Assembly: GCA_963704465.1 (NCBI GenBank)
Contig: OY969901.1
Span: 1,053,331-1,117,330, forward strand
Direction: 5' to 3'
Source of the DNA: an uncultured bacterium
GTDB lineage: Bacteria; Babelota; Babeliae; Babelales; Vermiphilaceae
DNA length: 64,000 nt
Shown: one piece after another, positions 1,379 through 2,869 of the stretch
Layout of the letters: each line of letters starts with the position of its first letter
How positions within the stretch are numbered: the first letter of the stretch is position 1
The notes under the pieces: generated by a model
Told to the model about the DNA's origin: nothing
The model's database searches: none
Seen by the model: the letters and a program-made list of their open reading frames with translations, nothing else
Translations under genes and position numbers: made by a program

Positions 1379-2869
1379 ATGAATATATCAATTTTTACAC
1401 TTGCATGTCTTTTGAGTATCAACGTATCAATCTGCTTCGCTATGCCTTTCGATGACAGCTACTGGGGACCATTTAACCCATCCTCTTCATCTTCCTCATC
1501 AACAACACACGCTTTAAGTAATTCTGATGCACATGCTTTATCACTATTTCCCCGCATCATACAGGATTGGTGCGTAGGAAAATCCAATAATTACCATGCG
1601 CAAAGGTTGGTTGAACTTGGGCATGACATACAAAAGGGGAAACGGTGCAATCCATGGCAGGCAACGCATAACGCTAAAGAAATCTGTGATGATTTAAATC
1701 TCTCTCCACACACCTTTTTTACCGTTGTTTCAACCTGCACAGCAATCGCTAAAAGGCAACCATTTGATCACTCTGCGCTCGCAATAACCTATGACCCTGT
1801 TACAGAATCTAACCATAAATTGGCGCTCATACAGCAGATGCCCAAAATAGTAGCCGATATATGCAGTAAAAATCCTGATGAACATTACAAAAAAATGCTT
1901 CTTGCATGTTTCTACTCGAACAATCCCAAAATAGTTACTATGATTATTGAACACCTTTTTTATGGCAAAACCCCACAGAAACGCTTTACGCGAACAATAA
2001 ACTATACCATTGCAAAAATCCTGTACGAAGAGCACAACAATGATAATTATATATCGCCGCATACTGCAGTGCGCATGGCACAAGAGCTACGTAATTGGGT
2101 ATTTGAGAAGAAACCAGTATCTTCTGATCCATACAACAAAGCATTAGAAATAGAGCTCTGTGAAAGCATCTGTAAACGATTTCCTGCAGAGCTCAAAAAA
2201 AGCTATGCTATGCATGAATACCATACAAAAAAACTTGTTGGCTATGCATTCCTGCTTGAAAATCCGGCTGAAAAAAATGTTATCGAATATTTTATCGAGC
2301 ATTCAGGGCTTATGTCACATACAAACATTAAATATTATGGTGATATACAGTATCACATTAAAGAACTCATAAAAAACAAAACTGCTGCTTATGAATTAAC
2401 CGATCAATTCATTGATATCTTTAAACCTGCTTCTATTCCATTACCGCTGCCAACATCAACTGCATCCTCGCATCAACCATCAACGCTCGTGGTATCGGCA
2501 CATCCTGCAGTAAATGTGATTCAAACATGCTATAACACGATTCTCAAAACCTGTTGCATACCAGATGAAAACAATCGAAACATAATACTCACAGAGCTTG
2601 TAGCATGCCACACTCAACTGCTTGCAACGGCAGAATCGGGAAACCTTGAACACCAAAACAAATTGTGTGATGAGCGCTACGTAAAACAACAATTGGAAGA
2701 AGCCATCCCAACCTGCCCTATCTGCTTTGATCGATTTTCCGATCAATTTAACACAGAATGCAATGGCGCAAAACACGCATTAACCCCATGCTCGCATGTT
2801 GTATGCACAGAGTGCTTCAAAAATTTAAACTCAACCTGCCCACTCTGCAGAGCGCCTATAGAAGGGTAA
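1379..2869 (+). CDS. Secreted protein with C-terminal C3HC4 RING finger (eukaryote-like E3 ubiquitin ligase domain)
   Basis: 496-aa ORF with AGGGAG upstream of the ATG and a hydrophobic leader, MNISIFTLACLLSINVSICFA. The C-terminus CPIC-x21-CSHVVCTEC-x7-CPLC fits C-x2-C-x(9-39)-C-x-H-x2-C-x2-C-x(4-48)-C-x2-C. Confidence 0.8.
   Translation: MNISIFTLACLLSINVSICFAMPFDDSYWGPFNPSSSSSSSTTHALSNSDAHALSLFPRIIQDWCVGKSNNYHAQRLVELGHDIQKGKRCNPWQATHNAKEICDDLNLSPHTFFTVVSTCTAIAKRQPFDHSALAITYDPVTESNHKLALIQQMPKIVADICSKNPDEHYKKMLLACFYSNNPKIVTMIIEHLFYGKTPQKRFTRTINYTIAKILYEEHNNDNYISPHTAVRMAQELRNWVFEKKPVSSDPYNKALEIELCESICKRFPAELKKSYAMHEYHTKKLVGYAFLLENPAEKNVIEYFIEHSGLMSHTNIKYYGDIQYHIKELIKNKTAAYELTDQFIDIFKPASIPLPLPTSTASSHQPSTLVVSAHPAVNVIQTCYNTILKTCCIPDENNRNIILTELVACHTQLLATAESGNLEHQNKLCDERYVKQQLEEAIPTCPICFDRFSDQFNTECNGAKHALTPCSHVVCTECFKNLNSTCPLCRAPIEG

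Follow-up and report, generated by a model that had tools for sequence, protein, structure and literature searches.

This locus raises the question of whether a bacterial gene that appears to end in a eukaryotic RING finger really does so and, if it does, for which cell its product is meant. Mimicry of eukaryotic E3 ubiquitin ligases by intracellular bacteria is well established. The DNA analysed here, a 64,000-nucleotide stretch of contig OY969901.1 (assembly GCA_963704465.1, positions 1,053,331 to 1,117,330; hereafter the window), carries on its forward strand at positions 1379–2869 (stop codon included, from the list of open-reading frames, ORFs) a gene for a putatively exported, 496-residue protein, which we refer to as the RING protein. 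Our analysis indicates that it is probably an effector with which an obligate intracellular member of the Babeliales (Dependentiae/TM6) acts on its host, namely an E3 ubiquitin ligase of the RING type.

A complete RING finger at the C-terminus

The last 51 residues of the RING protein (window positions 2714–2866, forward strand) read CPICFDRFSDQFNTECNGAKHALTPCSHVVCTECFKNLNSTCPLCRAPIEG and are followed by the stop codon, which ends at 2869. Eight zinc ligands (C446, C449, C471, H473, C476, C479, C487 and C490) are arranged as C-x2-C-x21-C-x1-H-x2-C-x2-C-x7-C-x2-C, which is the RING-HC order with permitted spacings, and the domain as a whole occupies residues 443–496 (2705–2866, forward strand) as delimited by motif, Pfam, Protein Data Bank (PDB) matches, structure model and conservation. 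The initial annotation, made from the DNA letters, had claimed a complete C3HC4 RING with exactly this spacing; translation confirms it, and a six-frame scan of the window returned a single C3HC4 pattern, at 2714–2866. The pattern appeared in none of 200 shuffled windows, nor did it arise when the residues of the protein were shuffled 20,000 times. An additional cysteine, C461, lies within the first loop and is not conserved among relatives.

Profile searches, which the annotation had proposed as a check, bear out the assignment: both Prok-RING_4 (PF14447, 32.8 bits vs. a cut-off of 27) and zf-C3HC4 (PF00097, 21.5 vs. 21) scored above their Pfam cut-offs, the former being the sole RING model clearly above its gathering score, and five more RING models matched at E ≤ 1.4e-3. 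Among solved structures, the best sequence match of the single protein was the RING of RNF4 (PDB 2xeu, 1.9e-5), a eukaryotic SUMO-targeted ubiquitin ligase, followed by BIRC7, RLIM, HRD1, PML, TRIM21 and Cbl. A profile of the family described below strengthened the RNF4 match to 5e-9; it also recovered over 60 chains of eukaryotic RING E3s, all of them falling on the C-terminal ~55–95 profile positions; the margin of RNF4 over RNF8, TRIM21 and RING2 is small, and the score implies neither orthology with nor direct descent from RNF4.

A structure model agrees with the profiles. AlphaFold2 (AF2), run on an alignment of 23 relatives, gave a mean predicted local distance difference test score (pLDDT) of 82.2, and an earlier run on two sequences (pLDDT 42.6) was discarded. 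The model shows the beta-beta-alpha fold of a RING, with strands at residues 465–467 and 474–476 and a helix at 477–481 (pLDDT 70–88), and Foldseek superposed its C-terminus on the solved RINGs of PML (template modelling score, TM, 0.73; root-mean-square deviation 1.8 Å), XIAP (TM 0.59) and IDOL, so that a structural overlay of the sort suggested in the annotation also comes out in favour of a RING. The protein terminates in a genuine eukaryote-type RING finger, which, given the ligand set and the modelled fold, would bind two zinc ions.

The RING is preceded by a helical stalk (residues 375–442; 2501–2704, forward strand) with modelled helices at residues 376–391, 397–419, 423–429 and 432–441. 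The family-profile match to RNF8 continues through this stalk helix (profile positions 379–473), and since it spans the helix that precedes the RING, a stalk-mediated dimer is possible; RNF8-like dimerisation of the RING protein is a speculative extension of that analogy.

A family of relatives with a conserved E2 surface

Relatives of the RING protein are easily missed. A word-indexed search returned a single homologue (P0002, 36% identity over the full length), and word-indexed searches started from the single protein, from the 23-member alignment or from an alignment of the N-terminal domain were all near-empty, in the case of the 23-member alignment with a candidate list saturated by common RING words. 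The family was revealed only by exhaustive HMMER searching of cluster representatives, which gave 79 representatives at E ≤ 1e-3 and 30 at E ≤ 1e-10. A contig scan of GTDB representative genomes with the RING protein found no relative, and a scan of IMG/VR found just generic RINGs in SNF2-type helicases of large viruses and no family members. Source records were checked for 20 representatives: aside from a rat RNF4 entry, all came from metagenomes or metagenome-assembled genomes (MAGs) and were unnamed or ‘hypothetical’. The family members sit in ordinary bacterial contigs, and Prok-RING_4 matches 12 of 23 relatives.

We counted conservation over those of the 31 best family hits that carry the RING, 21 in number, and each of these keeps the full set of eight zinc ligands. 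The residues predicted to contact the E2 are I448, F450, L483 and P488, with R491 as the linchpin, positions which we take to be equivalent to those described for c-Cbl and RNF4 on the basis of that literature and of the RNF4 alignment. A hydrophobic residue precedes the second cysteine (I448) in 20 of the 21 members, Leu or Phe follows it (F450) in all, Pro follows the seventh ligand (P488) in all, and Arg follows the eighth (R491) in 20 of 21, whilst Leu, Trp or Ile occupies the fourth position after the sixth ligand (L483) in 15 of 21. In the established RING mechanism, the linchpin residue after the eighth ligand matters for activation of the E2~ubiquitin conjugate (E2~Ub) and not for mere binding. 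The E2-activating surface is conserved, and by analogy with the established RING mechanism this points to E2~Ub activation as its probable function.

Two length features accompany this surface. The first loop, between the second and third ligands, is 20–26 residues long in all 21 counted relatives, and the tail after the eighth ligand measures six residues in the RING protein and 2–6 residues in 14 of 21 relatives. As the tail is mostly this short, a tail-mediated dimer in the style of RNF4 is unlikely.

The architecture around the RING varies. Extra repeats occur in three members (P0008, P0011 and P0012), and RING-less copies and short proteins consisting of stalk plus RING also exist. At L092:6001–8351 two paralogues lie in tandem: a complete, RING-less 358-residue copy (P0009) is followed, after 39 bp, by a 411-residue RING copy which lies outside the counted set and has a first loop of ~13 residues vs. 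the 20–26 usual in the family, so that 21 of the 22 RING-bearing relatives examined share the long loop. At L093:219–1738 the N-terminal domain (372 residues) and the stalk-plus-RING portion lie in different frames, with a frameshift near 1335; the split marks a pseudogene, a mistake in the assembly or a gene that is genuinely in two parts. The L093 sample comes from the run series to which the assembly of the window also belongs. Such changes in repeat number, together with the tandem paralogues, the loss of the RING and the copy split by a frameshift, are the dynamics of an effector-like family.

Leader and helical repeats

The RING protein begins with a hydrophobic leader that resembles a Sec signal peptide (MNISIFTLACLLSINVSICFA, residues 1–21; 1379–1441, forward strand), with a possible cleavage site after CFA, as read from the sequence; residues 2–19 are modelled as a helix. 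Most full-length relatives have a comparable hydrophobic leader, often ending in A-x-(A/G) and then D, and the leader is thus conserved as a property across the family. On the strength of this conservation the RING protein is predicted to be exported or secreted. It contains 23 cysteines and 23 histidines, of which only eight residues are RING ligands, and for a protein that would have to pass through the bacterial envelope its cysteine content is high.

A Ser-rich disordered spacer follows (residues 22–47; 1442–1519, forward strand; pLDDT <50 over residues 21–42), and then a confidently modelled, all-alpha region spanning residues 48–350. This region is built from about 2.5 tandem copies of an all-helical repeat of ~110 residues. 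Repeat 1 (residues 48–150; 1520–1828, forward strand; pLDDT 93–97) runs FPRIIQDWC ... LSPHT ... YDPvtEsnhK, repeat 2 (residues 151–264; 1829–2170, forward strand) runs MPKIVADIC ... ISPHT ... PYNkalE, and a degenerate third repeat (residues 265–350; 2171–2428, forward strand) runs RFPAELK ... FIDIF. All three were delimited with HHalign, which found the alignment blocks 48–160 and 150–275 to be homologous (probability 98.4%, E 7e-15) and matched repeat 2 to the third block (262–350) with a probability of 86.7% and E 4e-6. The repeat unit starts with (F/M)P-x-(I/L), contains (L/I)SPQT and ends with Y(N/D)P-x2-E-x2-N. Residues S109/S226, E143/E257 and P155, which lie at equivalent repeat positions, are invariant or nearly so in the 23 relatives, and by position these motifs would appear to be structural helix caps and not a catalytic site. 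A Pro/Ser-rich disordered linker (residues 351–374; 2429–2500, forward strand; pLDDT <50 over 353–373), unconserved and gap-rich in the family alignment, joins the repeats to the stalk.

The annotation had described the residues ahead of the RING as helical and like nothing recognisable, possibly a novel region for substrate recognition. The all-alpha model agrees with this, and the claim of novelty held up: no family member matches any non-RING Pfam model, a profile of the N-terminal domain alone found no credible match among PDB sequences, and a Foldseek search of the PDB returned no solved structural relative of the domain, which is therefore an unannotated, tandem-repeat helical domain. 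Its only Foldseek match was the BFVD entry A0A3G4ZK37, an uncharacterised 306-residue protein of a giant virus (Terrestrivirus sp.), which aligned with residues ~48–375 at E 0.022 and probability 1.00 (TM 0.52 over 328 columns, 15% identity). Three origins are conceivable for this weak likeness: an exchange may have taken place where giant viruses and Dependentiae inhabit one host, a contig may have been mis-binned, or helical repeats may simply resemble one another by chance. The boldest version, in which the ‘SPQT / YNPxxExxN’ repeat is a new substrate-recognition fold circulating among parasites of amoebae and the family an expanding, recombining set of Dependentiae effectors, we regard as rather doubtful. 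Were the Terrestrivirus link true, a host-targeting module would have passed between giant viruses and bacteria that live in one protist host, and in the RING protein this module would be joined to an RNF4-like RING acquired from a eukaryote.

The gene is bacterial and intact

The annotation took the gene to be bacterial, and the window leaves little room for another origin. It encodes Lon, ribosomal protein S1, MurJ, an ABC-F protein, Tgt, tyrosyl-tRNA synthetase, elongation factor P, NusB, serine hydroxymethyltransferase, SmpB and a transfer-messenger RNA (tmRNA), and belongs to a 1.25 Mb contig. The Lon protein shares 75% identity with its counterpart in a MAG labelled ‘Candidatus Babeliales bacterium’, all other matches being at 50% or below, and the adjacent ABC ATPase is syntenic with the same MAG; identity and synteny together indicate that the source is most likely a member of the Babeliales, phylum Dependentiae (TM6). 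The start codon of the RING gene is preceded by a purine-rich, Shine–Dalgarno-like site (AAAAGGGAG, 1367–1375, forward strand, read from the sequence) which ends 3 nt upstream of the ATG, and the gene was also called in a second, independent assembly of the same organism (L005). The family hidden Markov model (HMM) matched a single ORF in the window, 1379–2869, and no paralogue of the RING gene besides it.

Proposed mechanism

The locus shows the RING fold class, the full ligand set, a conserved surface for E2 activation, a bacterial origin and neighbours of an effector-like kind, and together with established RING biochemistry these features suggest how the RING protein would work. The leader would direct the protein through Sec, and from there it would reach the protist cytosol, for instance in vesicles shed from the outer membrane, along a type II-like pathway or on lysis. 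The Dependentiae live as obligate parasites of protists, amoebae among them, and have many candidate effectors that bear leaders (PMC6561590, PMC4378268); in Chromulinavorax, 44% of coding sequences have a putative signal peptide and putative outer-membrane vesicles bud early in infection (PMC6561590). Once in the host, the C-terminal RING, folded round its presumed two zinc ions, would offer I448, F450, L483 and P488 as the docking surface for a host E2~Ub, and the linchpin R491 would activate the thioester. The tandem helical repeats would serve as the target-binding module, positioning either a protein of the host or the effector as recipient of the ubiquitin, whilst the pre-RING stalk may, speculatively, dimerise in the manner of RNF8.

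Alternative explanations

Several observations weigh against a host-directed ligase. The leader has no basic n-region and might be a membrane anchor, no dedicated effector-translocation system was identified, so that arrival in the host cytosol is an assumption, Prok-RING_4 aligns with no more than the latter half of the domain (residues 462–493), and zf-RING_5, zf-C3HC4_3, zf-RING_2 and zf-C3HC4_2 (PF14634, PF13920, PF13639 and PF13923) fall just below their gathering scores. The alternatives that might account for the protein are nonetheless each less likely than a host-directed E3. It could be a decoy or scaffold whose intact RING surface sequesters or redirects host E2s or RING partners without catalysing transfer to a substrate: the conserved E2-contact surface would suffice for binding alone, and the existence of RING-less paralogues means that the N-terminal domain has a function of its own. 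Retention of the linchpin Arg after the eighth ligand in 20 of 21 members argues the other way, and we consider a decoy or scaffold unlikely. A ligase for another ubiquitin-like modifier (SUMO, NEDD8 or similar), or one that targets SUMO in the manner of RNF4, would explain why the closest solved RING is that of RNF4, with the same unusually long first loop; it is an improbable reading, though, for a protein that has eight classical ligands, unlike SP-RINGs, shows no cluster of SUMO-interaction motifs in its disordered segments (22–47 and 351–374), and lacks the C-terminal dimerisation tail of RNF4.

A role inside the bacterium is likewise quite unlikely. Here the protein would be a prokaryotic RING-like zinc finger that works in the envelope or periplasm, or within some bacterial system for conjugation or conflict, and never meets the host, and both the ‘prokaryotic’ top Pfam model and a leader that would put the protein outside the cytoplasm are in its favour. 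An eight-ligand Cys/His zinc site is poorly suited to the periplasm, however, conservation falls on the residues with which RINGs contact eukaryotic E2~Ub, and the neighbours include eukaryote-like ankyrin and F-box genes. Furthermore, Pfam and NCBIfam scans of window ORFs of at least 150 residues found no E1, E2, ubiquitin-like or JAB genes, from which it follows that the RING must use foreign conjugation machinery and that it is not part of a bacterial ubiquitin-like conjugation operon, a candidate we reject. As for an artefact, be it eukaryotic contamination, a chimeric assembly or the decaying pseudogene of a recent host-derived transfer, the eukaryotic type of the RING and the frameshift-split relative might hint at one, but the chance of it is negligible: the 496-codon ORF is intact behind its Shine–Dalgarno-like site, it lies within the 1.25 Mb bacterial contig and was recovered again in the independent assembly, full-length relatives (20–40% identity) occur in several bacterial contigs beside gyrB, dnaJ and the genes for alanine racemase and glutamate racemase, and conservation indicates purifying selection. 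Contamination and pseudogene are thereby effectively refuted.

Comparison with known RING and U-box ligases

In its RING, the protein is most like RNF4 (PDB 2xeu, 4ap4). Both have the C3HC4 order, a start of the form CPIC-hydrophobic-D..(F/Y)S(D/E), a CP.CR end and the linchpin Arg, and the long loop between the second and third ligands, 20–26 residues in the family, is 19 residues in RNF4. Unlike RNF4, the protein is bacterial, carries a leader and helical repeats, has no SUMO-interaction motifs in its disordered segments and has a tail of 6 residues after the eighth ligand, vs. ~14 in RNF4 by alignment, the dimerisation tail of RNF4 being absent. Membership of the RNF4-type SUMO-targeted ligases or of the SP-RINGs was rejected on account of the folded repeat N-terminus, the lack of a motif cluster, the short tail and the eight ligands. 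The Prok-RING_4 match, for its part, extends over profile positions 7–39 of 46, from the third to the eighth ligand, and eukaryote-derived RING models score nearly as well.

Among bacterial proteins, the functional precedent for the proposed mechanism is SneRING (SNE_A12920) of Simkania negevensis, a RING E3 active with UbcH5b and UBE2T which was characterised in 2025 (PMC12591485). Like SneRING, the RING protein is a (here predicted) RING-type E3 of an obligate intracellular bacterium, the host group of SneRING being amoebae. SneRING is atypical, with His at the third position of the first zinc site, NxxC in the second and Ser replacing a hydrophobic E2-contact residue (PMC12591485), and it joins an N-terminal RING to a C-terminal alpha/beta domain; here the order is reversed, the partner is all-alpha, the ligands are canonical and the phylum is another. 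Judged by architecture and ligands, the RING protein stands apart from SneRING and would not belong to its family (Simkaniaceae). Within the same phylum, the 2015 description of Babela massiliensis (TM6/Dependentiae) names ubiquitin hydrolases that are secreted, a protein with an F-box and a RING finger protein as a potential E3 (PMC4378268), which implies the same manipulation of host ubiquitin as we propose, although the RING protein is mentioned there without family, architecture or activity (PMC4378268). The U-box effectors LubX, GobX and RavN of Legionella, NleG of enterohaemorrhagic Escherichia coli and the C-terminus of AvrPtoB are secreted RING/U-box mimics which recruit host E2s of the UBE2D or UBE2E type (PMC12591485). 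These have missing or very divergent zinc ligands and type III/IV delivery, in contrast to the eight ligands and putative Sec-type leader of the RING protein, and a U-box assignment was rejected on the presence of those ligands and on a zf-RING_UBOX score of 19.1 vs. a cut-off of 25.2.

The annotation's remark that canonical RINGs are rare in bacteria is overstated for this ecological group: a RING protein had been noted in Babela in 2015 and SneRING was characterised in 2025, so that RING effectors as such have precedents. The novelty resides in the family, which fuses a fully canonical RNF4-like RING to an undescribed tandem helical repeat, and in the single structural echo in the giant-virus protein A0A3G4ZK37, a weak one. 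Knowledge of bacterial RING ligases is limited, according to the 2025 SneRING paper (PMC12591485); few have been studied, and the family offers a canonical eight-ligand RING with the linchpin Arg. Dependentiae are widespread, barely cultured parasites of protists whose effector biology is almost unknown, and the RING protein is a clean candidate for work on the rewiring of host ubiquitination, on the route of a Sec-leader effector to the cytosol and on recognition by helical repeats. It leaves current concepts unchanged, being a good experimental candidate and not a conceptual surprise.

Gene neighbourhood

The RING gene is the first of five consecutive genes (1379–6069) whose products have a signal-peptide-like leader, and three of the five carry eukaryote-like domains. 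Convergent to it lies a gene for a 265-residue ankyrin-repeat protein (2908–3705, reverse strand; Ank_2 1.3e-9; leader MKKLFFTMFFAVGLSG; gene call on L005), followed by two leader-bearing orphans (3841–4500 and 4510–5181) and, 2.3 kb downstream of the RING gene, by a gene for a 290-residue F-box-like protein with a leader (5197–6069, forward strand; 26.7 bits vs. a cut-off of 24.3). The region looks like a small effector island. The neighbourhood is partly conserved: the RING homologue P0008 likewise has an ankyrin gene immediately upstream, and two further orphans of the window, at 8319–9380 (forward strand) and 9525–10169 (reverse strand), have homologues at L086:19901–20929 and 17908–18486 (39% and 44% identity, respectively), at a similar distance downstream of P0008. 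On the same bacterial contig as P0008, a 188-residue gene with weak matches to the ubiquitin domain (PF00240) is found beside a DDE transposase (L086:1535–2101, reverse strand).

Other genes with eukaryote-like or effector-like domains are scattered through the window. A 435-residue WD40 beta-propeller protein, a eukaryote-like interaction domain, is encoded at 14415–15722 (forward strand), and two adjacent leucine-rich-repeat proteins (LRR_4) at 37220–38374 and 38701–39720 (forward strand). The Fic/DOC-domain protein at 46815–47564 (forward strand, 249 residues) may be an AMPylating effector or a toxin; a Fic gene also directly adjoins the RING homologue P0020 in L091. The 272-residue product of a gene at 61540–62358 (reverse strand) has a BRO-N domain, as typically found in phages and large DNA viruses. 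Finally, the tmRNA gene (47897–48264, reverse strand) lies beside smpB (48328–48828), and the tag that ARAGORN predicts for it, GEPVFA, is unusually short.

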